The notes under the pieces are model-generated. The model made no database searches and was not told where the DNA came from. It saw nothing but the letters and a program-made list of their open reading frames with translations. From NCBI GenBank assembly GCA_007122335.1, contig SKTZ01000029.1:5593-69592 (forward strand): 64,000 nucleotides of DNA. The letters run 5' to 3'. Both the position numbers and the translations under genes were made by a program. Positions 17,417-54,863 of this stretch are shown piece by piece. Source of the stretch: Bacillota bacterium (GTDB taxonomy: Bacteria; Bacillota; Halanaerobiia; B1SED10-174). Position 1 is the stretch's first letter; every line of letters begins with the position of its first letter.

Positions 17417-17422
17417 TTTTTC

Positions 17423-36318: not shown

Positions 36319-36324
36319 AGGGAA

Positions 36325-38076
36325 ATGAAAACTCGAGTTTTAGTAGGAATGGGGACCTGTGGAATTGCTGCAGGGGCAAGAAAAGTTATGGAAGCTCTTG
36401 AAAAAGGCCTGCAAGGGGTAGAAGGAGTCGAACTTTTGCCTACTGGCTGTGTGGGCTTATGTGAAAAAGAGGTAGTTGCTGAAATACAAAAAAATGGGGA
36501 AAAAACCATTTATGGTGACCTTACCCCGGAAAAAGTGGAGAGATTGATAGAGGAAGTAGTTTTAAAGGGTAATATAATTGAGGACTGGATTGCTGCCCGC
36601 CCCGAAGAACCCATCCTGGCCAAACAGGAGCGCATTGTTCTGGAGAATTGTGGGCATATTAACCCGGAAAATATAGATGAATACCTGGAAAAAGGTGGTT
36701 ATAAAGGGCTGGAAAAAGCTCTAAAGGATATGACCCCGGACCAGGTTGTGGAGGAAGTAAAAACTTCGGGGTTAAGAGGGCGTGGTGGAGGAGGTTTTCC
36801 CGCCGGCCTGAAATGGCAGTTTGCCAGCCAGGCCCCTGGAGATAAAAAATATGTTGTTTGTAATGCTGACGAAGGAGATCCAGGAGCATTTATGGACAGG
36901 AGCATAAAAGAGGGAGATCCTCATGCTCTCCTGGAGGGAATGCTTATTTGTGGTTATGCCATAGGCAGTGACGAAGGATATATTTATGTCCGGGCGGAAT
37001 ATCCCCTGGCCATTAAACGAATAAAGGTTGCAATGAAACAGGCCGAAGAACGAGGTTATTTAGGAGAAAATATCCTGGAAACAGATTATAACTTCCGGAT
37101 AAAAATAAAAGAAGGCGCTGGAGCGTTTGTCTGCGGGGAAGAAACCGCCCTGCTTGCATCAATTGAAGGGAGAATGGGACGTCCCCGCCCCAGACCGCCT
37201 TATCCGGCCACAAAAGGCCTTTGGAATAAACCGACCAATATTAATAATGTGGAGACCTATGCAAATATTCCTCGAATTATCAGGCGAGGTGGCGAAAAGT
37301 TCGCTCAAATAGGAACAGAGAAAAGTACGGGCACCAAGGTTTTTGCCCTAACGGGCAAAATTAATAATACAGGTTTGATTGAAGTTCCCATGGGGATTTC
37401 AATTAGAGAGATTATTTACGACATTGGGGGAGGCATTCCCGAGGGAAGAAAGTTTAAAGCTGTACAAATAGGAGGACCATCAGGAGGCTGTATTCCTGCC
37501 CACCTGTTGGATCTGCCCATTGATTACGATTCTCTGGTAGAATCAGGGGCAATTATGGGCTCAGGTGGTCTTGTAACAATGGATGAGGAGACCTGCATGG
37601 TTGATGTAGCCTGGTTTTTCCTTAATTTCACCCAGAAGGAATCATGTGGAAAATGCACTCCCTGCAGGGAAGGTACCAAACGAATGCTGGAAATCCTGGA
37701 GAGGATAAAAGCTGGGAAGGGGAAGAATGAGGACATTGAAAGGTTAAAATTTCTTGGCCGCAACATTGTGGATACTTCTCTTTGCGGACTTGGACAAACT
37801 GCTCCCAACCCGGTTTTGAGTACTCTACGCTTCTTTGAAGACGAATATCGGGCCCATATTGAAGAACAACGTTGTCCCGCCGGAGTTTGTGCTGATTTAC
37901 TGCGGTATGTAATTGTTCAGGAAGATTGCAAGCGCTGTTCAATATGTGTAAAAGTTTGCCCGGTGAATGCAATTAGCGGTAAACCAAAAGAAAAGCACCT
38001 TATTGACCAAGAAATTTGCACCAAGTGCAATGCGTGCCTGGAAAAATGTCCTTTTGACGCCATAGTTAAAAAGTAG
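36325..38076 (+). CDS. NuoF/HydB-family NAD(H)-binding FMN flavoprotein subunit with N-terminal [2Fe-2S] domain and C-terminal 2x[4Fe-4S] ferredoxin domain
   Basis: GRGGGGFPAGLKW FMN/NADH motif, the 51-kDa subunit SLBB cysteines, and two C-terminal CxxCxxCxxxCP motifs. Confidence 0.85.
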   Translation: MKTRVLVGMGTCGIAAGARKVMEALEKGLQGVEGVELLPTGCVGLCEKEVVAEIQKNGEKTIYGDLTPEKVERLIEEVVLKGNIIEDWIAARPEEPILAKQERIVLENCGHINPENIDEYLEKGGYKGLEKALKDMTPDQVVEEVKTSGLRGRGGGGFPAGLKWQFASQAPGDKKYVVCNADEGDPGAFMDRSIKEGDPHALLEGMLICGYAIGSDEGYIYVRAEYPLAIKRIKVAMKQAEERGYLGENILETDYNFRIKIKEGAGAFVCGEETALLASIEGRMGRPRPRPPYPATKGLWNKPTNINNVETYANIPRIIRRGGEKFAQIGTEKSTGTKVFALTGKINNTGLIEVPMGISIREIIYDIGGGIPEGRKFKAVQIGGPSGGCIPAHLLDLPIDYDSLVESGAIMGSGGLVTMDEETCMVDVAWFFLNFTQKESCGKCTPCREGTKRMLEILERIKAGKGKNEDIERLKFLGRNIVDTSLCGLGQTAPNPVLSTLRFFEDEYRAHIEEQRCPAGVCADLLRYVIVQEDCKRCSICVKVCPVNAISGKPKEKHLIDQEICTKCNACLEKCPFDAIVKK

Positions 38077-38091
38077 AGAGGGGGGAGATAA

Positions 38092-41024: not shown

Positions 41025-41061
41025 AGTAAGAGGACTGTTGTGGCTAACGGAGGTTTTACTT

Positions 41062-41553
41062 ATGTTTTTTTCCAAGGATGTCCTGGGAATGACAATAATT
41101 TTATATATTTTCTGGCTCCTTATTTCCTGGAGTTTACACTGGGTTAACCTTTTGCTGGGCTTTACCTTTGCTTTTTTTGTGGCCATCTTTATGGCCCCGG
41201 AAATCATAAAAAAAGAGGAAAGGCCGCCGTTTATTGCCCGAGGATTTTTTTTCCTGCGGTTTGTGTTTATTTTAATAAGGGAGATAATCAAAGCCAACAT
41301 CCAGGTTGTGCAGATTGTCCTCAGTCCCAAACTCAATATAACCCCCCAGTTTGTTGAAGTTAAGCAGGTCATGAGGTACCCGGTAACCCAGGTTTTGTGG
41401 GGCAACTCCATCACGCTAACACCGGGGACTTTAACCATAGATGTTGACGATAAAAAAATCCTGATTCATTTTTTAACCGGGGACCTTGTTTCTCACTTCC
41501 CCGATAACCCCGTTGGTAAAGCACTGGTCGAATTCGAGGGGAGATCAAAATGA
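41062..41553 (+). CDS. mrpE: Mrp antiporter subunit E (MnhE/MbhA-like)
   Basis: Family pattern of MnhE. ATG 41062 after GGAGG. Confidence 0.7.
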   Translation: MFFSKDVLGMTIILYIFWLLISWSLHWVNLLLGFTFAFFVAIFMAPEIIKKEERPPFIARGFFFLRFVFILIREIIKANIQVVQIVLSPKLNITPQFVEVKQVMRYPVTQVLWGNSITLTPGTLTIDVDDKKILIHFLTGDLVSHFPDNPVGKALVEFEGRSK

Positions 41554-41813
41554 TTGAAACTGCCTTTTTGGTGGCTGCTATTCTCCTGATGGTGAATGTT
41601 ATATTTTGCCTTTATCGGGCAGCAGTTGGTCCTACTCCGGGAGACCGGGTTGTCGCTATTAATATGATTACAAGTAAGACCATTGCGGTTATGGCCCTGG
41701 TTTCTTTTATGTACCATGAAGAACTGTTTCTTGATGTTGCAATTACTTATACCCTGATCGGTTATACAGCGACCATTTGTGTGGCTAAATACCTGGAATT
41801 GAAGAGGTTATAG
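41550..41813 (+). CDS. mrpF: Mrp antiporter subunit F (MnhF/PhaF)
   Basis: 87 aa, three TM helices. Start overlaps the mrpE stop (ATGA). Confidence 0.7.
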   Translation: MIETAFLVAAILLMVNVIFCLYRAAVGPTPGDRVVAINMITSKTIAVMALVSFMYHEELFLDVAITYTLIGYTATICVAKYLELKRL

Positions 41814-41825
41814 GAGGAGCAAGAA

Positions 41826-42146
41826 ATGCGGGAAATAATTGTAATGCTGTTTTTATTCACCGGTGTCTTCTTTTTTACAGTGGGAACAATCGGGGTTTTG
41901 CGCCTTCCCGATGTTTTTTGCCGCCTCCATGCCAATACAAAAAGTGATACCCTTGGTGTTGGTTTGGTCCTTTCTTCTTTAGTGCTTTATGAAGGACTTT
42001 CTTCAGCGGGAGTTAAAATAGTATTTATGATAATTTTTATCTTGATAACCAACCCCACTGCAGGCCATATTATTGCCCGAGCTTCTTATGATACAATTGT
42101 GGATTGGACCGGGCAGCTGGCCCGGCAAAAGGGTGGTGAGGAATAG
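41826..42146 (+). CDS. mrpG: Mrp antiporter subunit G (MnhG)
   Basis: 106 aa, MnhG-like pattern (VLRLPDVFCRLHANTKSDTLG). Confidence 0.7.
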   Translation: MREIIVMLFLFTGVFFFTVGTIGVLRLPDVFCRLHANTKSDTLGVGLVLSSLVLYEGLSSAGVKIVFMIIFILITNPTAGHIIARASYDTIVDWTGQLARQKGGEE

Positions 42147-42382
42147 TGGCGATCTTAGATCTCCTTTTATTGAGTATTCTTGTTCTCTGTGCTTTGGCCG
42201 CGGTTCGAACCCGGGATCTTCTTGGGGCAGTAATAATATATGCCGCTTATAGTCTTTTGATGGCAATTATCTGGCTACAACTGGGCTCACCTGATGTTGC
42301 GATTACGGAGGCTGCACTGGGAGCTGGAGTTACTACCATACTTATGATTGCCACCATTAGTAAGACGGGGAGGTATGAATGA
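42146..42382 (+). CDS. DUF4040-type membrane subunit (N-terminal MrpB/MbhD-like)
   Basis: 78 aa, two TM helices, GTG start overlapping the upstream stop. Position and size match MbhD-type split MrpB subunits. Confidence 0.55.
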   Translation: MAILDLLLLSILVLCALAAVRTRDLLGAVIIYAAYSLLMAIIWLQLGSPDVAITEAALGAGVTTILMIATISKTGRYE

Positions 42383-42735
42383 TGCGTCAAATTATCCCTT
42401 TTTTCTTAACCCTGGTCCTGGGAGCTGCTCTGCTACTGGTGGTCGCCGAAATGCCTCCGTTTGGGGATATAAATAACCCCGCTCATAATGTAGTTAGCGA
42501 ACGCTACCTGAATCAGGGAGTTCGGGAAACCGGAGCACAGAATATTGTCACTGCTATAATCACGGACTACCGTGCCTATGATACTCTGGGAGAGGTCACG
42601 GTTTTGTTTGCTGCTATTGCTGCAGTGCTTACTGTTTTAAACAGGTTGCGCTTGGGAGTAATCTGTCCTGAAGACAGGGAAAGGGGACTGACAGATGAGG
42701 ATGCAGGAGATCCTGATACTGAAGATAGTTGTTAG
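42379..42735 (+). CDS. MnhB-domain subunit (MrpB/MbhE-like)
   Basis: NIVTAIITDYRAYDTLGEVTVLF matches the MnhB signature. Confidence 0.6.
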   Translation: MMRQIIPFFLTLVLGAALLLVVAEMPPFGDINNPAHNVVSERYLNQGVRETGAQNIVTAIITDYRAYDTLGEVTVLFAAIAAVLTVLNRLRLGVICPEDRERGLTDEDAGDPDTEDSC

Positions 42736-43126
42736 ATTTGTTATTCCCTTTATCCAGGTCTATGGATTTTATGTAATTACTGCTGGACATCTTAGTCCTG
42801 GTGGTGGTTTTGCCGGGGGAACAATTGTTGCTGCCAGCATGGTTTTATATGCCCTGACTTTTGATGCTTCCCAGGGTCTTGAAAAACTCTCCCATGAAAG
42901 AGCATCCCTGTTTGAGAGTCTGGGAGCTATCTGGTATGTTGCCCTTGGTTTTTTGGGAATCCTTGTCGGAGGTAATTTCCTTACAAATGGGCAGATTGGA
43001 ATTCCTCTTGGCACACCGGGCTACCTGATAAGTGGGGGTTTGATTCCCCTTCTTTCTTTTGGGATTGGAATAAAAGTCGCAGTTACCGTTGTCAGCCTTT
43101 ATTATTCGCTGGTTGAGGAGGATTAG
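42695..43126 (+). CDS. MrpB C-terminal-like subunit (MbhF-like)
   Basis: GHLSPGGGFAGG motif typical of the MrpB second half. Start may be ATG 42701. Confidence 0.55.
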   Translation: MRMQEILILKIVVRFVIPFIQVYGFYVITAGHLSPGGGFAGGTIVAASMVLYALTFDASQGLEKLSHERASLFESLGAIWYVALGFLGILVGGNFLTNGQIGIPLGTPGYLISGGLIPLLSFGIGIKVAVTVVSLYYSLVEED

Positions 43127-43128
43127 TT

Positions 43129-43506
43129 ATGGCCGAAGCCCTTGCAGCCCTGGGCCAGAATTATTTCTTTTATTATGCTCTTATTCTTTTTATGGTTGGA
43201 TTTTATACCACACTGAGCCATTCAAATATTTTAAAAAAAATCATTGGGATCAATATAATGGAAACCTCAATATTCCTATTTTTTGTTGCCCTTGGTTATG
43301 TTGAGGGTGGGCAGGCTCCAATAATGGGTAGAGGAGCCGAAGGAGGGCCTTATATGAATCCCCTGCCCTCGGCCTTGATTCTTACTGGAATTGTTGTATC
43401 GGTAAGTATTACGGCTTTTGCCCTGGCTTTGATGGTTAAACTTTATCATTTTTATGGAACCCTTGACGCTGATGAAATTGTTATGCTGCGAGGAGAAAGA
43501 CAATGA
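43129..43506 (+). CDS. mrpC: Mrp antiporter subunit C (NuoK/MnhC-like)
   Basis: 125 aa, three TM helices, NuoK-like. Confidence 0.7.
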   Translation: MAEALAALGQNYFFYYALILFMVGFYTTLSHSNILKKIIGINIMETSIFLFFVALGYVEGGQAPIMGRGAEGGPYMNPLPSALILTGIVVSVSITAFALALMVKLYHFYGTLDADEIVMLRGERQ

Positions 43507-44993
43507 TATATCAGCTACCTGTTCTAATTGTGGTCCAACTTCTTTTGGGTTCTTTTCTTATGCCCATTGTGGGGAGGATTCGCAATCAGCTAATCCCCCA
43601 TATTTCGCTGTTTTTAATGGGTCTCGCCAATGTTTTCTCTATAATTTTACTTTTCCGGGTTGTCCGGGAAGGAAACATTCACTACCACCTTGGAAACTGG
43701 GCACCTCCCTGGGGCATTGAAATTGTTGCAGACCTTTTAGGTGCCTACATGGCAGTTATTATTACGGGAATAAGCTTTTTGGTCCTGGTTTTTGCCTGGC
43801 GGGATATTCAGAGAGAAATAAATTACGCCCTCAGGGGCTGGTTTTATACCCTGGTCCTACTGATTTCCGGGGCAATGGTAGGAATGGTTTTAACCAATGA
43901 TTTGTTCAATCTTTATGTTATGGTTGAAATCGTATCCCTTTGTGGTCCCGCCCTTGTGGCTATCCGGAACAACCGGCTTGCTGTGGAAGCAGGCTTTAAA
44001 TATCTGGTAATGATTGCTCTTGGTTCGGGCCCGATTCTTTTCGGGATTGCTCTAATTTATATGATTACCGGCCATTTGAACATGACTTTCGCCGGCCAGG
44101 AAGTATTAAATGTAATTCATGAATATCCCAGAGTTGCTCTTTTAGCCCAGGCCTTTTTCATCGTAGGTTTTGGGGTTAAGGCGGCCCTTTTTCCCCTGCA
44201 TGTCTGGCTCCCAGATGCTTATACTTCCGCACCTTCCCCCTCAAGTGCTCTTCTGGCCGGACTTGCGGCAAAAGTATATATAGTTGGTTTGACCCGGGTC
44301 CTTTTCAATCTTTATGGAATTGACGTACTTGCTACCACACCGCTTTTTACCATTCTCAAAGTAATGGCGGTGGCAGGGATTATCATGGGTTCAATAATGG
44401 CTCTAAACCAGAAAGATATAAAAAGGTTGGTGGCCTATTCAAGTGTTGCTCAAATTGGGTACATATTCCTGGGGCTTAGCCTGGCTACAGGGTTTAGTGT
44501 AACCGGGGCTATTCTCCACATTTTGAATCATGCCTTAATAAAGTCAATGATGTTTCTCTGCTGTGGAGTAATTATTTACCAGAAAAAAACCAGCAATGTG
44601 GATGAACTGGGGGGAGTGGGGAAGGAATTTCCCATAACCATGATTTGCTTTGGTATTGGTGCTTTTGCCATGGTTGGTATTCCCATGCTCAATGGTTTCA
44701 TTAGCAAATGGTATATCAGCCTGGGAGCCCTGGAATATGGGGGTCTGGCTGGTTTAATGTATTTGCTTGTGATTATTATCAGCAGCCTTTTAAATGGTCT
44801 TTATTATCTACCGGTATTAATTAAAGCCTTTTTGGGTGGGGATTCCCAAAAAGAAACTGTTTTTGATAAAGCACCAATTACTTTGATATTGCCAATTGTA
44901 ATTTTGGCTGCAGGTATAATTATTCTGGGGTTATTACCCTTTGTTCCGCTGCAAATTGCTGCAGACGCGGCCCAGCACTTGTTGGGCCAGTAA
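43503..44993 (+). CDS. mrpD: Mrp antiporter subunit D (NuoN/NuoM-like proton-conducting membrane transporter)
   Basis: 496 aa, ~14 TM. Conserved antiporter-like motifs (GFGVKAALFPLHVWLPDAYTSAPSPSSAL). Confidence 0.8.
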   Translation: MIYQLPVLIVVQLLLGSFLMPIVGRIRNQLIPHISLFLMGLANVFSIILLFRVVREGNIHYHLGNWAPPWGIEIVADLLGAYMAVIITGISFLVLVFAWRDIQREINYALRGWFYTLVLLISGAMVGMVLTNDLFNLYVMVEIVSLCGPALVAIRNNRLAVEAGFKYLVMIALGSGPILFGIALIYMITGHLNMTFAGQEVLNVIHEYPRVALLAQAFFIVGFGVKAALFPLHVWLPDAYTSAPSPSSALLAGLAAKVYIVGLTRVLFNLYGIDVLATTPLFTILKVMAVAGIIMGSIMALNQKDIKRLVAYSSVAQIGYIFLGLSLATGFSVTGAILHILNHALIKSMMFLCCGVIIYQKKTSNVDELGGVGKEFPITMICFGIGAFAMVGIPMLNGFISKWYISLGALEYGGLAGLMYLLVIIISSLLNGLYYLPVLIKAFLGGDSQKETVFDKAPITLILPIVILAAGIIILGLLPFVPLQIAADAAQHLLGQ

Positions 44994-45028
44994 AAAACAC
45001 TATGAATTAACAGGAGGAGGCAACCGGG

Positions 45029-46525
45029 ATGGTACAGGGAGTAGAAACGCATTCGCATTTACCGGGATTGGTCGTATTAATTCCAATAATTTTTACTGCA
45101 TTGGTAGGGATTTTCCAGAAAAGGTCATTTTTGCTCCGCAACTGGCTTTTTATTAGCGGCGCGGCAATTACCTTTGCTGGAATGGCTTTGATGGGCTATT
45201 ATGTCCTGCAGGGAAGAATACTGGTTATCAACTATCTTGTGGCCATGTTTCCGTTTACCATTACATTCAGAGTGGATACCCTAAGTTTTCTTATTGGGGT
45301 TGTTGCTGCAGGAGTATGGCTATTGGCTTCAATATATTGCTTGCAGTACATGAAAGATGACCATGCTCCCAACCGTTATTTCCCGGTTCATATTTTTACC
45401 CTGGCTGGTTCGCTAGGGGTATTTCTTGCGGGGAACCTCTATACTTTTTTCCTCTTTTATGAGGTAATGGCTTTTTCCGGTTACTTATTTGTTATCCATG
45501 CTGAAACTCCAGAAGCTTTTAAAGCTGGATCCAGGTACCTGATGGTAACCATCCTGAGTGGTATCCTGGTTTTCACTGGGGTTATTATTACCTATCAGCT
45601 GGCAGGAACTCTTGACCTGGGTTCTTTAGGAATCATTCCCGAGGCCAATGTTGTCTCCCTGATCGCCTTTGTGGCTTTTATAATTGGTTTTGGTTTTAAG
45701 GCGGGTCTTTTTCCGCTGCATACCTGGTTGCCTGCTGCTCACCCGGTTGCGCCGTCTCCAGCGAGTGCTTTGCTTTCTGGGATTTTGATCAAAACTGGAG
45801 CTTACGGAATAATCCGGGTAACCTATAACGTTTACGGGATCGAGATGATGCGGGATACTGGCTGGCCCACTATTCTGCTGATTTTCGCTGCGATTACCAC
45901 TCTTTACGGATCCATGGCTGCTCTGGTTCAGGATAATCTTAAAAGACGTCTCGCTTATTCAAGTATCAGTCAGATCGGATATATACTTATGGGGGGAGCC
46001 CTTCTTACCGAGCGTGGCCTGGCTGGTGATGTTTTTCACATTGTCAGTCATGCGACAATCAAAAGCACCTTGTTTTTAACTGCAGGGGCAATTATTACCA
46101 AGACGGGGATTAAATATGTAAGCCAGATGGCAGGAGTGGGGCGAAAAATGCCCTATACCATGGGGGCTTTTACCCTTGCTGCACTGGCTATGATCGGGAT
46201 TCCACCTTTAAATGGTTTTGTTAGTAAATGGGCCCTGGCCCTGGGTGCTTTAGATGCTGGCCAGCCAGGCTATGCGGTTGTTCTTTTAATCAGTAGTATG
46301 TTGAACGCCCTGTACTATTTACCAATTGTAATTCTTGCTTATTTCCGCAAACCGGAAGAAGGGACAGTTCTTTATGGAGATATGTTGCGTTACGATGAAG
46401 CCAGGGCGAGTATGCTTGTGCCAATTTTAATTCTGGCTCTGAGTTTGGTCATATTCAATATCCTACCTGTTAACCTGCCACTGGTTCTGGCCGAATTCTC
46501 CGCACGGGCCCTTTTCCAGCACTAG
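45029..46525 (+). CDS. second MrpD/NuoM-like antiporter subunit
   Basis: 498 aa paralog (GFGFKAGLFPLHTWLPAAHPVAPSPASALLS). Confidence 0.8.
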   Translation: MVQGVETHSHLPGLVVLIPIIFTALVGIFQKRSFLLRNWLFISGAAITFAGMALMGYYVLQGRILVINYLVAMFPFTITFRVDTLSFLIGVVAAGVWLLASIYCLQYMKDDHAPNRYFPVHIFTLAGSLGVFLAGNLYTFFLFYEVMAFSGYLFVIHAETPEAFKAGSRYLMVTILSGILVFTGVIITYQLAGTLDLGSLGIIPEANVVSLIAFVAFIIGFGFKAGLFPLHTWLPAAHPVAPSPASALLSGILIKTGAYGIIRVTYNVYGIEMMRDTGWPTILLIFAAITTLYGSMAALVQDNLKRRLAYSSISQIGYILMGGALLTERGLAGDVFHIVSHATIKSTLFLTAGAIITKTGIKYVSQMAGVGRKMPYTMGAFTLAALAMIGIPPLNGFVSKWALALGALDAGQPGYAVVLLISSMLNALYYLPIVILAYFRKPEEGTVLYGDMLRYDEARASMLVPILILALSLVIFNILPVNLPLVLAEFSARALFQH

Positions 46526-46541
46526 GAAGGATGTAGATATA

Positions 46542-48956
46542 ATGGTTAATGCAATCGGGCCGAGCATGCAAAACGCGTTGCTTGTAACCGCGATATTTGC
46601 TCCCCTTCTGGCCGCTGGAGCCCTGTTTAAAGTAAGGGTTTTTAAAACGGCACACAAAATTGCTCTTGTGGCAATTGGGCTTGCTGTTGGGGCGTTAGTT
46701 GCTGTTGTTGGGGAGCCGATAGAATTTATCTGGGAAGGTTTCCTCGGGGTAAGATTTGTCCTTGCTCCTGATTACATGGGGATTTTCCTTGCCATTATGG
46801 CCCTTGTTTTATGGTTTCTTTATACTCTTTTTAGCCTTGATTTTATGCAGAGAAGCCATAATTCAATTCGTTTTCTTTTCTTTTCCCTGCTTTCCCTGAC
46901 TGGAACCCTTGGTGTTTTTCTTGCAGGGGATCTTTTTACAATGTTTGTCTTCTTTGAATTTATGGCCTTTGCCTCTTTTCCCCTGGTTATCCATGAGGAG
47001 ACTGAAGAGGCTCACCGGGCGGGCAAACAGTACCTTTATATTGGAGTGCTGGGAGGCCTGACTATTTTGCTGGGCCTTTTTCTGCTGTACCATCGCCTGG
47101 GAACTCTTGTATACAGTGAACTGGGAGGAGCACTGGCTGGTGGGTCCCCGGTGGATATAATAATTATCGCTGGTCTGCTGCTCGGGTTTGCCATAAAGGC
47201 GGGCCTGGTTCCAGTCCACTTCTGGGTACCCCAGGGTTATGTTGCCGCCCCGGCACCTGGTAGCGCAATCCTTTCTGCCGTTCTTAAAAAATGTGGAGTT
47301 TTTGGGATTATCCGTTTGCTCTTTTTAATGGCTCCGATGTTAACTTTCGGGCAGGTAATACTTGGTTTTGGTTTATTAACAATGGTTTTGGGATCGCTAC
47401 TGGCCTTTTTTGAGCATAACGGGAAAAGAATACTTGCTTACAGCAGTGTAAGCCAGGCGGGTTATATTATGGTAGGGTTCGGCGGAGGCGCGATAATGGC
47501 TGAAACTGGAGTAATGGGAGGTCTTGGTTCTTTTTTCCACGTTCTCAACCATGCTCTCTTCAAAGGAAGCCTATTTTTAGCTTTGGGTTATACTTTTCTG
47601 CGAACCCGGGAATTCAATATTTATCGCCTGGGTAACCTCTGGAAGAAGATGCCCTTTACAACCATTTTAGCAGTTGTTTCTGCAGCCGGGCTAATGGGAT
47701 TACCTCTTTTTAACGGTTATCCCAGCAAAACAATGATTCACCACGCCATTACTTTCGCCGAAAGTGAAACTCAAATGGCGATATACGGATATGCTGAAAC
47801 CCTTTTTAATATTGGTGCCGCAGGGACCACTGCTTATTGCATCAAGCTGATTTATAATGTTTTCTTCGCTCCCCGGGAGCCTGAGTTTACAGGGGAAAAA
47901 GAAAAACCCCTGGTTCAGGGGATATTTATGGTTTTAATTGTAGCCATGCTTTTTATCGGGCTGTTTCCAACTCTGACCATGGAAACCATTATTTTCCCCG
48001 CTGCAGGTGCTTTTTTCCTGGACCCTGATTTTGTTGATTATAAATTAGGTGGGTACAATTTTTTCAATGCTTATGATCTGCGGGGGGCTTTTAAAATTCT
48101 TTTAATTGGTCTGGGGTTAACCGCTATCAACCTTGTTTTGGTCAAAAAACGAATAGACCTTCCCCGCTGGTTATCAATTGAAAGGCTTGTTTTGAATCCT
48201 TTAATTAAGGCTTTAGGGGCAATTCTTGGTGCTTCATATTATTTTATTAATAATCGGCTAATGGGTTTTGGGACTGGTCTCGTAGAAGGCTATAAAAAAG
48301 GACTTCCCTTTATTAACCACCTGGATGGCTATGTTGATGAAATAGGAAAGAGAACAGATGATCTTTTTGCCGGATTTGTTTTCAAGACCTCGGGTAGCCA
48401 TGACCAGAGAAAGCTGATCAATCTGATTTTAGATTATGGAAAGGAAGAAAAAGAAGAAGCTGAGCTGCATGGGTTCTGGAATTGGTTAACGGGTGAAGGA
48501 ATTTTACAACCAGTTGATAAAGAGAATGTTGATTCCCCCGATTTTATTGGAAGTGTTGAAGATTTCAGCAAAAGAATTCAGGAAATGATGGAAAAAGAAG
48601 AGTTGACGGAAAAAGAGAAAAATCGCGTAGAAAGACTTTTTGCCCGGCTTATGGCTTTAGAAGAAAAGGGCATTTCCCCAAAAAGTATGGAGGAGAAAAG
48701 TTATCCTCATTTGCGGATTATCCAGCGAATGGAAGAGATATTCCAGTACCTTACGGGGAATATACAAACTGTTGACGGGTTGGAAAAAGACCAGGAAAAA
48801 GCCCGGGTAGACAAGAAAAAAATCGAAAAAAAGAAGGAAGCTCTGGATTCCGGCTGGGGCAAGTGGAGCGTGTTGAACCTTAATTTTGACATGATTATCC
48901 TTGCTGTTACTCTGGTAATTGCGGTTATATTGCTGGTATTTTTTGCCCAGATTTAA
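46542..48956 (+). CDS. MrpA/NuoL-like antiporter subunit with ~230-aa hydrophilic helical extension and C-terminal TM anchor
   Basis: N-terminal ~520 aa antiporter core (GFAIKAGLVPVHFWVPQGYVAAPAPGSAILS). Then a charged, coiled-coil-like region (EEKEEAELHGF...KEKNRVERLFARLMALEEKG...). It ends with a single TM (MIILAVTLVIAVILLVFFAQI). Confidence 0.75.
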   Translation: MVNAIGPSMQNALLVTAIFAPLLAAGALFKVRVFKTAHKIALVAIGLAVGALVAVVGEPIEFIWEGFLGVRFVLAPDYMGIFLAIMALVLWFLYTLFSLDFMQRSHNSIRFLFFSLLSLTGTLGVFLAGDLFTMFVFFEFMAFASFPLVIHEETEEAHRAGKQYLYIGVLGGLTILLGLFLLYHRLGTLVYSELGGALAGGSPVDIIIIAGLLLGFAIKAGLVPVHFWVPQGYVAAPAPGSAILSAVLKKCGVFGIIRLLFLMAPMLTFGQVILGFGLLTMVLGSLLAFFEHNGKRILAYSSVSQAGYIMVGFGGGAIMAETGVMGGLGSFFHVLNHALFKGSLFLALGYTFLRTREFNIYRLGNLWKKMPFTTILAVVSAAGLMGLPLFNGYPSKTMIHHAITFAESETQMAIYGYAETLFNIGAAGTTAYCIKLIYNVFFAPREPEFTGEKEKPLVQGIFMVLIVAMLFIGLFPTLTMETIIFPAAGAFFLDPDFVDYKLGGYNFFNAYDLRGAFKILLIGLGLTAINLVLVKKRIDLPRWLSIERLVLNPLIKALGAILGASYYFINNRLMGFGTGLVEGYKKGLPFINHLDGYVDEIGKRTDDLFAGFVFKTSGSHDQRKLINLILDYGKEEKEEAELHGFWNWLTGEGILQPVDKENVDSPDFIGSVEDFSKRIQEMMEKEELTEKEKNRVERLFARLMALEEKGISPKSMEEKSYPHLRIIQRMEEIFQYLTGNIQTVDGLEKDQEKARVDKKKIEKKKEALDSGWGKWSVLNLNFDMIILAVTLVIAVILLVFFAQI

Positions 48957-49437: not shown

Positions 49438-49474
49438 CTCCCCAGGGGGATTGGATTCTCCTGGGAATAAAAAA

Positions 49475-49502
49475 AGCTCCCGTATGAGGGAGCTTTGTTT
49501 TA
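49475..49502 (+). terminator. rho-independent terminator
   Basis: AGCTCCC-GTATGA-GGGAGCT hairpin followed by TTGTTTT. Confidence 0.7.
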
Positions 49503-49504
49503 AG

Positions 49505-49591
49505 TGGTGCCGAAGGTGGGATTCGAACCCACACGAAGGTAACTTCACACGACCCTGAATCGTGCGCGTCTGCCAATTCCGCCACTTCGGC
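49505..49591 (-). tRNA. tRNA-Leu (anticodon CAG)
   Basis: The reverse complement reads GCCGAAG-TG-GCGG...ACGC-CACGA-TTCAGGG-TCGTG-(long variable arm)-GTGGG-TTCGAAT-CCCAC-CTTCGGC-ACCA. It has a 7-bp acceptor stem, a CAG anticodon loop, a long extra arm and an encoded CCA. Confidence 0.85.
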
Positions 49592-49782: not shown

Positions 49783-50232
49783 ATGAGCAAGGATCTGGTC
49801 GCAGAAAAGTCAAACCTTATTAAGGTGTTACAGACGGAGCAAAAGAAGGAAGGTTTTATCTCTGATGCTGCAATAGAGAGAATAGCTGGAGAATTTAACC
49901 TTCCTGTTGTAGAGGTTGAAGGTGTTGTGAGTTTTTATACCCAGTTCAAAAGGGTTCCCCCGGGCAAATACCAGATTATGGTTTGTGATGGGACTGCATG
50001 TCATATTATCGGTTCAACCCTGATCTTGAACTGGCTTACTGACGAACTTGGCATAAAAGACGGGGAGACCGATGAAGAAGGTCTCTTTTCTTTGGAAAGC
50101 GTTGCCTGCCTGGGTTGTTGCAGTTTAGCCCCGGTAATCAGCATTAACGGCAAGGTCTATGGTAAGCTTGATCGCAAAAAACTATTAAAAATTGTAGCAG
50201 ACTTTCGGAAAAAGGAGGCAGCTGGATCATGA
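49783..50232 (+). CDS. NuoE/HydC-family [2Fe-2S] ferredoxin subunit (second copy)
   Basis: VCDGTACHIIG...ACLGCCSLAPV four-Cys pattern. ATG 49783 after GAGGAGGG. Confidence 0.8.
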   Translation: MSKDLVAEKSNLIKVLQTEQKKEGFISDAAIERIAGEFNLPVVEVEGVVSFYTQFKRVPPGKYQIMVCDGTACHIIGSTLILNWLTDELGIKDGETDEEGLFSLESVACLGCCSLAPVISINGKVYGKLDRKKLLKIVADFRKKEAAGS

Positions 50233-51950
50233 TAAAAAGAATTAAAGTGGGGATGGCCAGCTGTGGTATTGCTGCCGGAGCAGGTGAAGTGCTGGAATTA
50301 CTGCAGGAAATGGCCGGAGATAATAAAGTTGTTGAAGTTGGTTGTATCGGACACTGTTATGCTGAACCTCTTGTTGAAGTTGAAACAGATTCCGGGGACT
50401 ATATTTTTGAAAAAGTCCAACCCAAGGAAGAAGACCTGCAGAAGATTATTGACCTGGATGAATTTTCTCGCTTTCAACCCCATTCCCCGCGTGTTGATAA
50501 AGAAAGACAATTGATTACCTCTCTCGCCGGGAAAATTGTTCCCACCTCTCTTGAGGAATACAGGGCTAACAAAGGATACGAGGGCTTGAAAAAAGCTCTG
50601 GAAATGGAACCGGATGCAATTGTTGACGAAGTGAAAACTTCCAAGTTGCGTGGCCGTGGTGGGGGAGGTTTTCCCACGGGATTAAAATGGAGCTTCCTGG
50701 CAGCCAAGGACAGCGAGCAAAAAGTTTTAATTTGCAATGCTGACGAGGGAGATCCGGGGGCTTTCATGGATCGGACTTTAATGGAATCACTTCCCCATCA
50801 GGTTTTGGAAGGAATGTTGATCGGGGCGAAAGCAACTGGTGCCCGCCAATTATTTATTTATTGCCGGGCGGAATATCCCCTGGCAGTAAAAAATTTGAAT
50901 ATTGCGATTGAACAGATTGAAAAAGAAGGCCTTAATATAATCGATGGAGAGCCCGTTAAAATTATGGTTAAAGAAGGAGCGGGGGCATTTGTTTGCGGAG
51001 AAGAAACTGCCCTCATTCACTCCCTTGAAGGGAAGAGAGGGACTCCAAGGTATCGCCCCCCATATCCAACTGACTATGGTTTCCACGGCTATCCCTCGGC
51101 AATAAACAATGTTGAAAGTTTTGCGAATATCCCCCTGATTGTCCGGGATGGAGGGGAAAATTTTGCAGCTACGGGAACCGAGAATAGCACGGGAACAAAA
51201 CTCTTTGCTCTCGCCGGAGACCTGGAGTATTCTGGACTTGTTGAGGTTCCCATGGGAATTTCTATAGGGGAAGTTGTCTACGACATTGGAGGGGCTGAAC
51301 CGGGAAGTGTTAAGGCTGTCCAGATTGGAGGCCCCAGCGGTGGTTGCATTCCTGCGGAACACTTTGATACTCCCATTGACTACGACTCTCTCACTTCCCT
51401 GGGTGCAATTATGGGGTCAGGTGGCTTGATTGTAATTGGAAATAACCGTTGCATGGTTGAAACTGCTCGCTATTTCCTGGAATTTACAACCAGGGAAAGC
51501 TGCGGGAAGTGTACTTTCTGCCGGATCGGAACCAAGCGAATGCTGGAGACTCTGGAAAGAATAACCGGTGGGGAAGGTGGTCCCGAAGATGTAGAGCTCC
51601 TCGCTGATCTGGGTAAGAAAATTATTCAGGGATCCTTGTGTGGGCTCGGTCAAACCGCTCCCAACCCGGTGCTTTCTACCCTCAAATATTTCAATAATGA
51701 ATACCTGGCTCACGTCGAAGAAGGCCATTGTGCGGCCATGGAGTGCAAGGCCCTGGTTGATGTTTTTATCGATAGGGAAACCTGCATTGAATGCGGGCAG
51801 TGTATTAAGAATTGCCCCGTTGATTGTATAAGCGAGGATTACGTGATTGATAATGAAATTTGCACCCGCTGCAACAGCTGTATTGAGGTTTGTCCTGTAG
51901 ATGCCATTGCCCGGGTTGCGAAAGGAGGGGAAGTCAGTGTCGGAAATTAA
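50229..51950 (+). CDS. NuoF/HydB-family NAD(H)-binding flavoprotein with N-terminal [2Fe-2S] and C-terminal 2x[4Fe-4S] domains (second copy)
   Basis: GRGGGGFPTGLKW motif and CxxCxxCxxxCP x2 at the C-terminus. Paralog of 36325..38076. Confidence 0.85.
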   Translation: MIKRIKVGMASCGIAAGAGEVLELLQEMAGDNKVVEVGCIGHCYAEPLVEVETDSGDYIFEKVQPKEEDLQKIIDLDEFSRFQPHSPRVDKERQLITSLAGKIVPTSLEEYRANKGYEGLKKALEMEPDAIVDEVKTSKLRGRGGGGFPTGLKWSFLAAKDSEQKVLICNADEGDPGAFMDRTLMESLPHQVLEGMLIGAKATGARQLFIYCRAEYPLAVKNLNIAIEQIEKEGLNIIDGEPVKIMVKEGAGAFVCGEETALIHSLEGKRGTPRYRPPYPTDYGFHGYPSAINNVESFANIPLIVRDGGENFAATGTENSTGTKLFALAGDLEYSGLVEVPMGISIGEVVYDIGGAEPGSVKAVQIGGPSGGCIPAEHFDTPIDYDSLTSLGAIMGSGGLIVIGNNRCMVETARYFLEFTTRESCGKCTFCRIGTKRMLETLERITGGEGGPEDVELLADLGKKIIQGSLCGLGQTAPNPVLSTLKYFNNEYLAHVEEGHCAAMECKALVDVFIDRETCIECGQCIKNCPVDCISEDYVIDNEICTRCNSCIEVCPVDAIARVAKGGEVSVGN

Positions 51951-53976
51951 ACTGACCATAGACGGAAAACAGATTACAGCCCCCAGAGGGAAGACCATAC
52001 TTGAAGTGGCCAAAGAAAATGGGATAGAAATCCCGACCATGTGTCACGATGATAGAATAAGCCAGACCACCTCCTGCTTTGTTTGTATTGTCCGGGAAGG
52101 GAAGAATGGAAACTGGATGCCCTCCTGCTCTGCAGAAGCCCAGGATGGGATGGAAGTTGATGCATCAAGTGATCTAGTTCGGGATATGCGGAAAACCGCC
52201 CTGGACCTGCTCCTTTCTGAGCATAGCGGAGATTGCGAGGCTCCCTGCACGATTTCCTGTCCCGCCCATGCCCGGGTTGAAGAATACGTGAGAGCAGGAC
52301 GGGACGGTGATTTGCGGAAAACACTGGAAATTGCCAAGGAGCGTATTCCCCTGCCCCTCTCAATTGGAAGGGTTTGTCCGCGGTTTTGTGAAAAGGACTG
52401 CCGGCGTAATGTGTTAGATAATGAAGGTGTTGCCATTAACGATTTCAAACGCATTTCGGCCGACCTTTATTATGATGAATATATGGAGGAACGGAAAGAA
52501 CTGACCGGACAAAAGGTTGCTATTATCGGTTCTGGCCCTGGCGGACTGGCAACTGCCTATTTCCTGAGGTTAGAAGGTGTGGCCTCTGATATTTACGAAA
52601 AATTACCTGAGGCCGGAGGTATGCTCCGTTACGGTATTCCAGAATACCGCTTGCCCAAGAAGGTTTTGGATAAAGAACTGGCTCATTTTGAAAAAATGGG
52701 TGGTATTAAAATATACTGTAATAACGAATTGGGCAAAGACATCCAGCTGGATAAACTCAAAAAAGAATATGATGCAGTTGTGGTAGCTGTTGGTTCCTGG
52801 AAGGCCAGCGGAATGAGAACTGAAGGGGAAGAGCTGGCCAGGGGAGGCATTGACTGGCTGGAAGAGCTGGCCCTTAATGGCTGGAAAGGTGAAGACCCTG
52901 GAGAAACCATAGTTGTAGGTGGTGGAAACACCGCCATGGACTGTGTACGCAGTGCGCTTCGCCTGACTGATGAACCTGTTCACTGTATGTACCGCCGGAC
53001 GGAAAAAGAAATGCCGGCCGAGCAAATTGAGATAGATGAAGCACGGGAGGAAGGTGCCCGGTTTAATTTCCTAACTCAGCCCATTAAACTTCGCAGAGAA
53101 AACGGGAAACTTGTTCTGGAATGCTTGCGGATGGAACTGGGTGAACCAGATGCTTCGGGAAGAAGGCGTCCCGTGCCCATTGAAGGCAGTGAATTTGAAG
53201 TTGCCGCAGATACTGTTATCGCTGCTATCGGACAGAAAACCCTTGCTCCAAAAGGGCTTCCAACTAACAAGTGGGGCGACGTAGATGTTGAAGAAGCTGA
53301 CTGCCGGGCAGAAGGTAATGTTTTTGCTGCAGGTGACTGTGTAAGTGGTCCAGCAACAGTTGTCGAAGCAGTTGCCGGTGGAAGAAGAACTGCCCTGGGA
53401 ATACTGGCCTACCTTAAAGGAGAAGAGTGCCAGCTTCCCCGTCAGATTAATGTCTCGCGCGGACACTGGCAGAGCATGTCCGAAGACGATCTGGTCTACC
53501 TTTTTGAACCCGATAAAAACAAAAGAGTCCCTCTGCGTTTGATACCCCTGGAAGAGAGAACTTCTACCTTTAAAGAAGTTAGTTATACCTTTACCGAAGA
53601 GGAAATTTTGGAAGAAGGAAAACGCTGTATTGAGTGTAGCTGTACTGCCAAAGGAGATTGTAAGCTTAAAGACTTCTCTGAAACCTATGGAGCCCATCCG
53701 GAAACATTTGGTGGAGAGAAAGGAAATAATACCTACAATTCCCGCCATCCCCACATAATAATGGATAACGGAAAATGTGTAAAATGTGGGATTTGTGTAA
53801 AAGTCTGCAGCGAGGTCGTTAACGAATATCTCCTGGGCTTTAAAAACCGGGGCTTTAAAACCAAGGTTGAAACTGCATTTGATACAACCCTTCCTGAATT
53901 CTGCACCGATTGCGGTGAATGTATTGAAGCCTGCCCGGTGGGAGCCCTGGATTGGAAAAAGAAAAAGGACGAATAA
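51937..53976 (+). CDS. GltD/NfnB-like NAD(P)H-dependent FAD oxidoreductase fused between NuoG-type N-terminal [2Fe-2S] and C-terminal His-ligated/[4Fe-4S] cluster domains
   Basis: N-terminal ferredoxin-like [2Fe-2S] region ([22 protein letters not shown]...MCHDD...CFVC). Then the GltD-type two-cluster motif ([10 protein letters not shown]...CPRFCEKDC) and the FAD/NAD(P) Rossmann motif ([15 protein letters not shown]). The C-terminus carries [21 protein letters not shown] and [15 protein letters not shown] 51937 after AAAGGAGGGG. Confidence 0.7.
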
Positions 53977-54014: not shown

Positions 54015-54863
54015 ATGTCAAAACTTATTGATGGAAAGCAGATTGCTAAAGAAATCAGGGTAGAATTAAAAAAAGAAGTAGATGCCTTAAAGGAAAAAAC
54101 AGGAAAAGTTCCTGGCCTGGCAGTGGTTCTGGTTGGGGAAGATCCTGCATCAGCAACTTACGTTCGGATGAAGGGAAAAGCCTGCGAAGAAGCAGGATTT
54201 TTGTCCCGCACCCACAGGCTGTCTGAAAACACCACGCAAAAAGAATTGCTGGATTTAGTTAAACAACTCAACGATGATGACGAGATCCATGGAATTCTGG
54301 TTCAATTGCCTCTGCCGGATGGTCTTGACGAACAGGAAGTTCTTTATACAATTGACCCGGAAAAAGACGTGGATGGTTTTCATCCCTTCAATGTTGGCCG
54401 CTTGATGACGGGAGATCCCAGTTTTGTGCCCTGCACTCCTCGTGGTGTAATTGAACTCCTCGACCGGTCGGGAGTTGAAATAAAGGGTAAGAGAGCTGTT
54501 GTAATCGGAAGGAGCAACATTGTTGGGAAACCGGTTGCCCTTTTACTGCTACAGAAGCATGCAACGGTAACCATCTGTCATTCTCGGACCCAGGACCTTC
54601 CCGGAGTAGTGCGGGAGGCAGATATTGTTGTTGCCGCGGTGGGAAGACCAGAAATGGTAAAAGGGGATTGGATTAAAGAAGGTGCAATAGTTATTGATGT
54701 AGGTGTCAACAGGGTTGGCGAGAAAAAACTGGTTGGAGACGTTGCATTTGATGAAGCAAAAGAAGTTGCCAGCCTGATAACTCCTGTCCCCGGTGGGGTT
54801 GGCCCAATGACAATCGCCATGTTATTACAGAACACCCTGGAATCTTTCAAAAACCATGGATAA
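54015..54863 (+). CDS. folD: bifunctional methylenetetrahydrofolate dehydrogenase/methenyl-THF cyclohydrolase
   Basis: [15 protein letters not shown]...[21 protein letters not shown]... is a typical FolD. Confidence 0.9.

Follow-up and report, generated by a model that had tools for sequence, protein, structure and literature searches.

Three adjacent genes in the window (the whole stretch of 64,000 nucleotides of DNA that was analysed) are predicted to encode a minimal, heterotrimeric and soluble electron-bifurcating transhydrogenase of the Bfu type (HydBC core), belonging to the Stn/Nfn-ABC enzymes; we estimate the probability of this reading at about 0.72. As judged from the sequence, the enzyme is a minimal and as yet uncharacterised variant within a known family, from which its activity is deduced. 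This family balances the NADH, NADPH and ferredoxin pools of the cell, and the short form found here lacks a large domain that is present in all studied versions and indispensable in one of them. The genes and the domains of the large subunit are as follows.

49783–50232, + strand: BfuC/StnA/NfnC-like small subunit, NuoE family, 149 aa, 16.3 kDa (Pfam 2Fe-2S_thioredx, PDB matches)
50229–51950, + strand: BfuB/StnB/NfnB-like subunit, NuoF family, 573 aa, 61.7 kDa (Pfam, PDB matches)
51937–53976, + strand: short BfuA/StnC/NfnA-like large subunit, 679 aa, 75.3 kDa, GTG start (Pfam, alignment, Foldseek)
51937–52221, + strand: large subunit 1–95, NuoG/HydA-type [2Fe-2S] domain, C36/C47/C50/C64 (Pfam Fer2_4)
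52222–53436, + strand: large subunit 96–500, first half of the split His/Cys motif, then GltD/NfnL-like module (Pfam Fer4_20 and Pyr_redox_2, StnC alignment)
53614–53976, + strand: large subunit 560–679, second half of the split motif and NuoG-type 2x[4Fe-4S] (Pfam Fer4_Nqo3 and Fer4_7, alignment)
54015–54863, + strand: FolD (methylene-THF dehydrogenase/cyclohydrolase), neighbour (NCBIfam FolD models above cut-offs)

The open reading frames of 149, 573 and 679 aa were found by a check of the window itself, and the same products were called by independent gene callers on 15 public contigs. The three genes are translationally coupled. Genes 1 and 2 share the sequence ATGA at 50229–50232, and the GTG at 51937 was correctly described beforehand as overlapping the upstream stop, being located 14 nt within gene 2, which ends with the stop codon at 51948–51950. 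AGGAGG is present 7–11 nt 5' of each of the three starts, and the ribosome-binding site upstream of ATG 49783 of gene 1 reads GAGGAGG. Initiation of the large subunit at GTG 51937, and not at ATG 51901, is supported by its homologues, which begin at the equivalent MSxI position. The folD gene, with its own ribosome-binding site, begins 38 nt 3' of the large-subunit gene, and no terminator-like site was detected within this 38-nt gap; folD is probably co-transcribed with the three-gene cassette. FolD is a neighbour and not a component of the complex, and its adjacency to the cassette is not kept in more distant relatives. Every related locus with sufficient flanking sequence keeps the order NuoE–NuoF–large subunit, and the junctions are tight or overlapping. 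The genes flanking the cassette differ between loci, as expected of a self-contained unit.

Enzymes of this type are represented by StnABC of Sporomusa ovata, the Sporomusa-type Nfn (PDB 8oh5/8oh9; PMC7483475, PMC10482914), and by the NfnABC (Nfn-Bfu) enzymes of Caldicellulosiruptor saccharolyticus (Csac; 9bov) and Thermococcus sibiricus (Tsi; 9n5u) (PMC11829005, PMC12018979). The preliminary description of this DNA had called them sparsely characterised, which no longer holds: for three of these enzymes cryo-EM structures appeared in 2023–2025, together with mutagenesis of two. Its proposal of an Stn/Nfn-like candidate agrees with our searches, in which each of the three proteins had its best homologues of solved structure in 8oh5, 9bov and 9n5u; none of these is a hydrogenase or a formate dehydrogenase. 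For the large subunit, E-values against the three solved enzymes (3e-175, 1.2e-158 and 8.9e-155) are far beyond chance. It is collinear with StnC 1–672 (42.4% identity), where the domain order, left to alignment in the preliminary description, matches residue for residue, and with Csac NfnA 4–673 (45.1% identity). A Foldseek search in PDB gave 9bov_A, 8oh5_C and 9n5u_A as the top three hits of its AlphaFold model, of which the C-terminal Fe-S domain is of low confidence.

Pfam matches on the large subunit are Fer2_4 (3–76), Fer4_20 (100–178), Pyr_redox_2 (193–482) and a NuoG/Nqo3-type dicluster (605–671). Together with the two halves of a split motif, H96xxxC100xxxC104xxxC108P and C564xxC567xC569x5C575, they account for the [2Fe-2S], GltD-like and His-ligated/[4Fe-4S] elements that had been recognised in gene 3. 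Since the GltD-like module is located between the two halves, the NuoG-type N-terminus is interrupted by a GltD insertion, as had been suggested. The module includes two [4Fe-4S] sites (C147, C151, C155, K171), the FAD motif G198xGxxG with R238, and the NADPH motif G328xGxxA (G328-G-G-N-T-A333) with Y352-R353-R354; G328–A333 and Y352-R353-R354 are both invariant in the family alignment. The ligands of the C-terminal 2x[4Fe-4S] are C614/617/620/624 and C656/659/662/666; C36/C47/C50/C64 are invariant in 74 homologues. When the cofactor motifs were mapped, all 36 Fe-S/FAD/NADPH positions checked were common to the family, apart from the family-variable positions 114 (Val here, Cys in StnC), 604 and 624. 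Roles were described for K170 and R239 of StnC, the former being strictly conserved in StnC and essential (PMC10482914). These residues align to K171 and R238 of the 679-aa subunit, positions that are occupied by Lys in 73 of 74 family sequences and by Arg in all 74, respectively.

The large subunit terminates 13 residues after its last CxxCxxCxxxCP motif, and the Fdh/molybdopterin-like domain is wholly absent. The characterised large subunits are of 955–1178 aa and include a vestigial formate-dehydrogenase-like domain of molybdopterin fold without cofactor, which all three solved enzymes, and likewise each of the 24 homologues listed by Kremp in Table 1 (891–1241 aa), contain in full or in part. 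The earlier statement that gene 3 has neither an H-cluster nor a molybdopterin domain stands, as Pfam gave no match for the former nor for Molybdopterin, Molydop_binding or Molybdop_Fe4S4; as a point of likeness to StnC it fails, because StnC, Csac NfnA and Tsi NfnA keep the vestigial Fdh/NuoG-like domain, and this absence is the main difference from them. As judged by the conserved C-terminus and a separate, deep clade, the short form is real and not a truncation. The C-terminus is conserved in clade relatives, an identical protein is encoded on 15 contigs, and the best 120 database matches are all of 672–694 aa with about 100% coverage. The clade includes members from Halanaerobiales, Victivallales, Verrucomicrobia and Marinimicrobia. 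Several points weigh against the reading as a bifurcating transhydrogenase. Identity between the clade and the rest of the family is only about 41%, and the NuoF-like subunit of the cassette (50% identical to StnB) is further from StnB than is the paralogue in the FDH operon (60%). In S. ovata, a functional complex could not be purified after deletion of the FdhF-like domain, and in Csac NfnABC the Fdh-like domain helps to form the cleft in which the small subunit is anchored. The published electron path, FAD-A7-A6-A3-A2-A1-B1-FMN, falls entirely within the retained part, the Fdh-like domain holding only a dead-end branch. The literature searched included no biochemistry of any short form.

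The NuoE-like subunit is a thioredoxin-like [2Fe-2S] (C1) protein (Pfam 2Fe-2S_thioredx, 8.7e-46), in which the CDGTAC and CLGCC motifs align to the C1 ligands of NfnC. Its best PDB matches are 8oh5_A, 9bov_C and 9n5u_C (about 1e-38), and its N-terminus is about 25 aa shorter than that of StnA or Csac NfnC. The NuoF-like subunit (Pfam Complex1_51K, NADH_4Fe-4S and two Fer4) matches 9n5u_B, 9bov_B and 8oh5_B end-to-end (E 2.4e-187 to 6.7e-181), and comprises a thioredoxin-like domain at the N-terminus, a site for FMN/NAD(H), the [4Fe-4S] site B1 (C425/C428/C431/C471), the B2 site, which is of His/Cys (Zn) type, and a 2x[4Fe-4S] ferredoxin domain at the C-terminus. The B2 site, C408/T446/H495/C501/C506, aligns to C438/C476/H525/C531/C536 of A. 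mobile HydB, with Thr at the second position as in StnB and the FeFe enzymes. Within DEGDPGAFMDR, A178 and M180 correspond to the Bfu-specific A202 and M204 of A. mobile HydB. Two CxxCxxCxxxCP motifs are located at residues 519–556, and the Cys residues of the first motif that were checked are conserved in the compared homologues. Throughout the clade there is no variation in the C-terminal 2x[4Fe-4S] domain, in H495 and the Cys residues that partner it, or in GAFMD. By alignment, the hallmarks of the Bfu family, the BfuABC electron-bifurcating enzymes (Schut et al. 2022, PMC9304861), that were tested in this subunit (dicluster domain, B1/FMN residues and B2) are present.

These residues bear on an unlikely alternative, in which the three proteins form a non-bifurcating NAD(P)H-linked oxidoreductase (an NADPH:NAD+ transhydrogenase, an NADPH:ferredoxin oxidoreductase or a diaphorase), its Bfu-like machinery being uncoupled through loss of the Fdh-like domain and a changed B5 site. 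The anchor for the small subunit in Csac NfnABC is indeed missing, and the N-terminus of the small subunit is shortened. In BfuB, the thioredoxin-like domain at the N-terminus carries the B5 site, either [2Fe-2S] or Zn (PMC9304861). This domain is aligned here, with C12, C39 and C43, but the Cys of the N-C-G motif that follows it is replaced by Ala100, as in 10 of 11 clade members, while it is Cys in 44 of 46 other BfuB; the B5 site may therefore be altered. However, B5 is a redox-inactive Zn in two active bifurcating NfnABC enzymes, and thus need not be a cluster. Furthermore, non-bifurcating homologues have neither the B2–B5 sites nor the His of B2 (H525 in A. mobile HydB) (PMC9304861), whereas the NuoF-like subunit here keeps the dicluster, H495 and GAFMD.

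In the bifurcating transhydrogenase that we prefer, NADP(H) would bind to the 679-aa subunit, at the FAD of its GltD/NfnL-like module. Single electrons would move through the two [4Fe-4S] clusters of this module, one of them Lys-ligated (K171), and would then reach B1 and FMN in the NuoF-like subunit by way of the composite His/Cys cluster and the clusters of NuoG type. This FMN, acting with B1 and the NuoE-like [2Fe-2S] cluster, would split or merge electron pairs between NAD(H) and ferredoxin, whose putative docking site is the 2x[4Fe-4S] domain at the C-terminus of the NuoF-like subunit. The predicted net reaction is NADH + reduced ferredoxin + 2 NADP+ <-> NAD+ + oxidised ferredoxin + 2 NADPH. 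This mechanism is deduced from homology to the solved enzymes. The structure of the genes, the order of the domains, the cofactor residues, the conservation of the cassette and the clade are observed in the sequences, whereas formation of the complex, its activity, bifurcation and its oligomeric state are deduced. As the Fdh-like C-terminal domain is missing, a single heterotrimer of about 153 kDa, and not a tetramer of trimers, is the predicted form of the complex, and the small subunit would be held differently than in the characterised members.

It is quite improbable that the three proteins constitute an electron-input module only, with a catalytic subunit (formate dehydrogenase or hydrogenase) encoded elsewhere. 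Such an arrangement is suggested by a clade member from a Halanaerobiales MAG (L012), in which the same N-terminal 675 aa are fused to a complete Cys-type FdhA domain, and by the selenocysteine FdhA encoded about 9 kb upstream of the cassette. This FdhA comes with a NuoG-type N-terminus and a NuoE/NuoF pair of its own, the pair at 35827–38076 preceding the formate dehydrogenase gene; the cassette was rightly described as holding the second pair. In addition, the large subunit has a substrate site of its own (FAD/NADPH), the neighbours vary by locus, and a survey of about 30 short-form loci showed no Fdh-like ORF within 7 kb in any of them. The possibility of a missed catalytic gene, raised in the preliminary description, is answered by the same survey and by folD directly downstream. 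An NAD-linked formate dehydrogenase or hydrogenase (FdsGBA, HoxEFU-HY, HydABC) was rejected, no catalytic molybdopterin, [NiFe] or H-cluster domain being present in gene 3 or downstream.

It is very improbable that gene 3 encodes a glutamate synthase small subunit, a generic FAD-dependent oxidoreductase or an Nso-like NADPH-dependent sulfur/oxygen reductase: although PRK12814 ('putative NADPH-dependent glutamate synthase small subunit') is the best NCBIfam model, databases use labels such as 'FAD-dependent oxidoreductase' or 'formate dehydrogenase major subunit', and NsoABC of Thermococcus litoralis is homologous, the scores stay below the cut-offs (619.6 against 916 for PRK12814; 289.8 against 483 and 173.8 against 448 for TIGR01317/01318), the annotated neighbours include no GltB-like gene, NuoG-type clusters are present, NuoE/NuoF genes always precede the large-subunit gene, and Nso was reinterpreted as an Nfn-type enzyme, the T. 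sibiricus homologue having been shown to bifurcate.

Among known systems, HoxU of the HoxEFU diaphorase of NAD-reducing [NiFe]-hydrogenases has the NuoG N-terminal Fe-S module without a molybdopterin-like domain, and its partners are homologues of NuoE and NuoF. The HoxU model matches the large subunit in two stretches. The latter may be viewed as a HoxU-like module into which a GltD unit is inserted. This likeness is architectural only; HoxU is without the FAD/NADPH module and serves a hydrogenase. Classical NfnAB/NfnSL (4ylf, 5jca) catalyses the same net reaction as predicted here, and NfnB/NfnL is homologous to the GltD-like module (2.5e-79 and 4e-67). Identity with this enzyme was rejected: the upstream partners are NuoE/NuoF-like instead of NfnA/NfnS (FNR-like, with FAD and [2Fe-2S]), and the ligand of the proximal cluster is Lys instead of the Glu of NfnB/NfnL. 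Bifurcation in the Stn family is attributed to FMN, in the NuoF-like subunit, and not to FAD. The N-terminal part of StnC is about 40% identical to SfrB of Geobacter sulfurreducens SfrAB, which has no NuoE/NuoF partners (Kremp et al.).

With StnABC, the cassette shares the gene order (NuoE-like, NuoF-like, GltD/NuoG fusion), the domain order over StnC 1–672, the split HxxxCxxxCxxxCP/CxxCxCx5C motifs, the NADPH motif and all clusters of the FAD-to-FMN path. In contrast, StnC is 1172 aa long and its inactive FdhF-like domain (683–1172), absent here, mediates tetramer formation; C114 of StnC is V114 here, and identities are 42% for the large and 50% for the NuoF-like subunit. The best overall matches are Csac and Tsi NfnABC, the large subunit being 45% identical to Csac NfnA. 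Shared with these enzymes are a BfuBC core containing the [B1-FMN-C1] site, a Lys-ligated A7 cluster and a B2 site of Zn type whose fifth position is Thr. The full or partial Fdh/NuoG-like domain of Csac NfnA (1178 aa) and Tsi NfnA (963 aa) has no counterpart here, and Tsi NfnABC, in which this domain is reduced, is a single heterotrimer.

The three packed genes of the preliminary description were confirmed, all on the plus strand and with overlapping junctions:

49783-50232, plus strand: NuoE-like gene, 149 aa (Pfam 2Fe-2S_thioredx)
50229-51950, plus strand: NuoF-like gene, 573 aa (Pfam Complex1_51K, NADH_4Fe-4S, and two copies of Fer4)
51937-53976, plus strand: large-subunit gene, 679 aa from GTG [Pfam Fer2_4 (3-76), Fer4_20 (100-178), Pyr_redox_2 (193-482), and NuoG/Nqo3-type dicluster domain (605-671)]

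The first and second genes share an ATGA overlap, the GTG of the third gene lies 14 nt within the second, and AGGAGG is present upstream of all three starts. The large-subunit reading frame could be extended 5' to an ATG at 51901, and the GTG matches the start position of homologues including StnC of Sporomusa ovata. The same three products were called on 15 public contigs carrying an identical large protein, including MAG GCA_003557885.1 and a 174-kb ENA contig. The order of Pfam domains in the third gene agreed with the earlier view of a GltD insertion breaking up a NuoG N-terminal domain, and neither an H-cluster nor a molybdopterin domain was detected by Pfam in the large subunit, again as claimed. 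The cassette is set off from the upstream genes by a bidirectional terminator-like hairpin (49473-49496) and a tRNA-Leu gene on the minus strand (49505-49591). The hairpin, consisting of a 9-bp stem with T-runs on both strands and adjoining this tRNA-Leu(CAG), could be the terminator for both the NUDIX gene and tRNA-Leu. Downstream, FolD starts 38 nt 3' of the large-subunit gene, and no terminator-like site was seen between the two.

When each of the three proteins was compared with all PDB sequences, the top matches were StnABC of S. ovata (8oh5; PMC7483475, PMC10482914) and NfnABC of Caldicellulosiruptor saccharolyticus (9bov) and Thermococcus sibiricus (9n5u) (PMC11829005, PMC12018979), with E-values for the large subunit of 3e-175, 1.2e-158, and 8.9e-155, respectively. 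The next-ranked matches of the large subunit, NfnB/NfnL, GltD, and dihydropyrimidine dehydrogenase, covered the inserted module only, and those to the N-termini of hydrogenase, NuoG, and formate dehydrogenase (FDH) were confined to the Fe-S ends. By MAFFT alignment, the large subunit was found to be collinear with StnC 1-672 (42.4% identity) and C. saccharolyticus NfnA 4-673 (45.1%). Foldseek search with its AlphaFold model (mean pLDDT 75.6; good for the GltD-like module, poor for residues 591-679) gave the same three chains on top, at TM of about 0.69 normalised to the query. The best match of NuoF was rejected as a marker of Stn membership, as the NuoF paralogue of an FDH operon in the window is closer to StnB (812 bits, 60% identity) than the NuoF-like subunit of the cassette (606 bits, 50%); the NuoF match alone therefore assigns no function, and the large subunit does. 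The Stn/Nfn-like transhydrogenase put forward in the preliminary description was supported, with corrections, by the same three solved complexes being the best matches of each protein. We estimate a probability of roughly 70% that the cassette product is an NADP(H)-linked bifurcating transhydrogenase of the BfuABC electron-bifurcating family (Bfu; Schut et al. 2022, PMC9304861). The membership features that can be read from sequence were found, except for the Fdh/NuoG-like C-terminal domain, which is absent, and the B5 site, which may be altered; in working principle, the predicted complex would be a Stn/Nfn-Bfu enzyme. Databases name such short-form proteins in ways that inform little or mislead ('FAD-dependent oxidoreductase', 'formate dehydrogenase major subunit', 'glutamate synthase small subunit').

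Conservation of the cofactor sites was read from an alignment of 74 family members. Invariant or nearly invariant were the N-terminal [2Fe-2S] site (C36/C47/C50/C64), C147/C151/C155 with K171, the FAD motif G198xGxxG with R238, the NADPH motif G328xGxxA with Y352-R353-R354, and two CxxCxxCxxxC(P) motifs (614-624 and 656-667). K171 and R238 align with K170 and R239 of StnC, respectively; K170 serves as Lys ligand to the FAD-proximal cluster and is reportedly strictly conserved in StnC, with Glu in its place in NfnB (PMC10482914). By motif count, the large subunit should carry one [2Fe-2S] cluster, five [4Fe-4S] clusters, and FAD. The mid-potential path seen in the T. sibiricus structure runs FAD-A7-A6-A3-A2-A1-B1-FMN (A, B, and C numbers denote metal sites in BfuA, BfuB, and BfuC), and the Fdh-like branch of the S. 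ovata and C. saccharolyticus enzymes has dead-end clusters. As the productive path from FAD to FMN avoids this branch, the whole path is kept in the window's protein.

The large subunit of the window stops 13 residues past the dicluster domain, in contrast to StnC and both NfnA proteins. StnC (1172 aa) contains an inactive FdhF-like domain (683-1172), through which the tetramer is formed and without which no functional complex was obtained. The same domain in C. saccharolyticus NfnA (1178 aa) is also part of the cleft gripping the N-terminal domain of the small subunit, while T. sibiricus NfnA (963 aa) has a reduced domain and the enzyme is a single heterotrimer. In a table of Kremp et al., 24 StnC homologues range from 891 to 1241 aa. 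Structural and mutational work so far has all been performed on large subunits with a big, catalytically dead Fdh-like domain, which may contribute to stability, bring about tetramerisation, or anchor the small subunit. No publication describing or assaying the short form, lacking this domain, was found within an incomplete coverage of the literature; the acetogen homologues in Table 2 of Kremp et al. are given without lengths, and some may be short.

A split gene, with the Fdh-like domain encoded as a separate ORF, was rejected after inspection of about 30 short-form loci: no Fdh-like ORF was present within 7 kb, and phmmer search of all their ORFs with four long-form C-terminal domains gave a single match, a fused large subunit at locus L012. 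A truncation artefact was dismissed from the identical 679-aa product on 15 contigs, the uniform lengths of the relatives (among 5.8 billion proteins, the best 120 matches all fall within 672-694 aa, at 61-90% identity and coverage of about 100%), and the 12-residue C-terminal tail kept in them. The small subunit begins about 25 residues later than StnA and C. saccharolyticus NfnC; a shorter NuoE N-terminus was rejected as a correlate of the short form, being a soft and overlapping trend across loci with uncertain start codons.

For a survey of related loci, one genome per species was scanned and 80 loci were returned. The gene order NuoE-like, NuoF-like, and large subunit was observed at every locus with enough flank. 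In a neighbour-joining tree, together with group identities, the window's protein belongs to a deep short-form clade that branches apart, with 54-69% identity inside and about 41% to all others. Members of this clade include MAGs of Halanaerobiales, Verrucomicrobia, Victivallales, and Lentisphaeria; close database matches add the names Marinimicrobia, Spirochaetales, Zixibacteria, and Oligoflexales, and the clade may be widespread in halophilic Bacillota, the PVC group, and Marinimicrobia. Its three subunits co-diverge, the scores to the NuoF-like subunit of the window being 819-976 bits inside the clade and 560-620 bits outside. V114 (C114 in StnC) was rejected as a marker of the clade, as Val or Ile is also found in 17 of the 44 long forms. 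The characterised enzymes fall in the other group, mostly long forms of 1150-1265 aa. A second, independent short lineage, from gut Clostridia, is nested among long Stn-like forms and includes 675-aa forms, which end directly after the dicluster domain, and forms of about 735 aa, which retain past it a degenerate remnant of about 60 aa with the cysteines mostly lost:

L023, L027, L034, L062, L069, L084: loci of the second short lineage in Eubacterium and related MAGs
L032, L035, L038, L053, L079, L080: loci of the second short lineage in Ruminococcus, Acutalibacteraceae, Oscillospiraceae, and Coriobacteriaceae

The nested position of this lineage indicates that the Fdh-like domain was reduced or lost more than once. 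No conserved functional neighbours were found across the related loci. The flanking genes vary, FolD adjacency being confined to near-identical contigs; elsewhere the downstream gene is for RnfD, IspA, GrpE, a glycosyltransferase, a radical-SAM protein, or a sigma-54 regulator.

The NuoF-like protein aligned end to end with StnB and NfnB and includes the C-terminal dicluster domain. The B1 ligands are C425/C428/C431/C471, and the B2-site residues C408/T446/H495/C501/C506 correspond to C438/C476/H525/C531/C536 of A. mobile HydB, with Thr at the second position as in StnB and FeFe enzymes. The Bfu-specific A178 and M180 (GAFMD) are also present, and the C1 ligand motifs are kept in the NuoE-like protein. 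Non-bifurcating homologues reportedly lack B2-B5 and the His (PMC9304861). The Cys of an N-C-G motif after the N-terminal domain was found in 44 of 46 other BfuB proteins, in StnB, in C. saccharolyticus NfnB, and in the other NuoF paralogue of the window; this position is Ala100 (50526-50528) in the cassette and Ala in 10 of the 11 members that make up the window's clade; T. sibiricus NfnB has Ser there. The B5 site may thus be altered in this clade by replacement of a near-universal Cys. As B5 is a redox-inactive Zn in two active NfnABC enzymes, Ala100 is not a strong argument against function.

The first NuoE/NuoF pair of the window (163 and 583 aa) is encoded ahead of an FDH alpha gene, the set spanning 35827-40779 (plus strand). 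The FdhA reading frame is split by an in-frame TGA (39148-39150) at the canonical selenocysteine (Sec) position, within a 14-residue motif; read through, FdhA is 895 aa, its N-terminus being of NuoG type. The partner NuoF is of complete Bfu-type architecture, with matches to StnB and A. mobile HydB at about 800 bits, and for these reasons the operon looks like one for a Bfu-type, possibly bifurcating, Sec-FDH. At L012:6995-11086 (Halanaerobiales MAG Soudan_4, JADQBU010000110.1), the large subunit is 1363 aa long. Its first 675 residues or so, GltD insertion included, are 62.5% identical to the window's short protein, and its C-terminal half, with complete Molybdop_Fe4S4, Molybdopterin, and Molydop_binding domains and Cys-His at the catalytic position, is 58% identical to the window's FdhA 215-893. 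This protein, in effect a fusion of the two separate proteins of the window, is a candidate NADP-linked Bfu-type FDH. As the same N-terminal 675 residues are here fused to a Cys-type FDH, the short form may be a descendant or the ancestor of an NADP-linked bifurcating FDH.

In the proposed mechanism, NADP(H) would react at FAD of the large subunit, and single electrons would reach B1 and FMN by way of the Fe-S chain. The flavin, B1, and C1 would then partition electrons between NAD(H) and ferredoxin at the B3/B4 domain, with gating by motion of the C-terminal domain in the small subunit, as has been suggested for Stn, NfnABC, and HydABC. The physiological direction in a fermentative or acetogenic anaerobe is usually from NADH and reduced ferredoxin to NADPH. 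The position of the cassette beside FolD and the putative Bfu-type Sec-FDH operon is compatible with supply or drain of NADPH in C1 metabolism, though this adjacency is not conserved and carries no weight in the interpretation. A glycine-betaine ABC transporter and an Mrp-type antiporter are encoded in the window, compatible, together with Halanaerobiales among the relatives, with a halophilic anaerobe.

The antiporter operon, of Mrp/Mnh cation/proton type (41038-48956, plus strand), encodes MnhE, MbhE-like, MnhB, NuoK-like, and three MrpD/A-like subunits, of which the last (46542-48956, 804 aa) has a C-terminal extension that is long, hydrophilic, and rich in Glu/Lys, and then a last hydrophobic stretch. 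At 16343-19403 (minus strand), genes for a BcrAD/BadFG-type ATPase and a DUF2229 'CoA enzyme activase' adjoin a 357-aa ORF without a strong Pfam match, and look like a set related to 2-hydroxyacyl-CoA-dehydratase activators. The ORFs at 6158-7522 (454 aa) and 34605-35573 (322 aa), both on the plus strand, gave no Pfam match at the thresholds used.

We somewhat favour the view that the window's clade represents a natural minimal Nfn-Bfu, predicted to be a single heterotrimer of about 153 kDa that would bifurcate without the Fdh-like domain, forming its own deep and widespread lineage, with the small subunit anchored differently, an altered B5, and a possible link to NADP-linked bifurcating FDH. 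In many anaerobes, the balance of NADPH, NADH, and ferredoxin is set by Stn/NfnABC enzymes. A natural conserved form without the Fdh-like domain would show that this domain is dispensable for the family, would give structural and spectroscopic studies a smaller model enzyme, and would correct uninformative annotations in numerous Halanaerobiales, Victivallales, Verrucomicrobia, Marinimicrobia, and gut Clostridia genomes. Its significance is as a useful minimal example, occurring in nature, of an enzyme family whose structures were solved recently, and no new principle is involved: the cassette is a minimal variant of a known family, neither a plain member nor a new kind of system.
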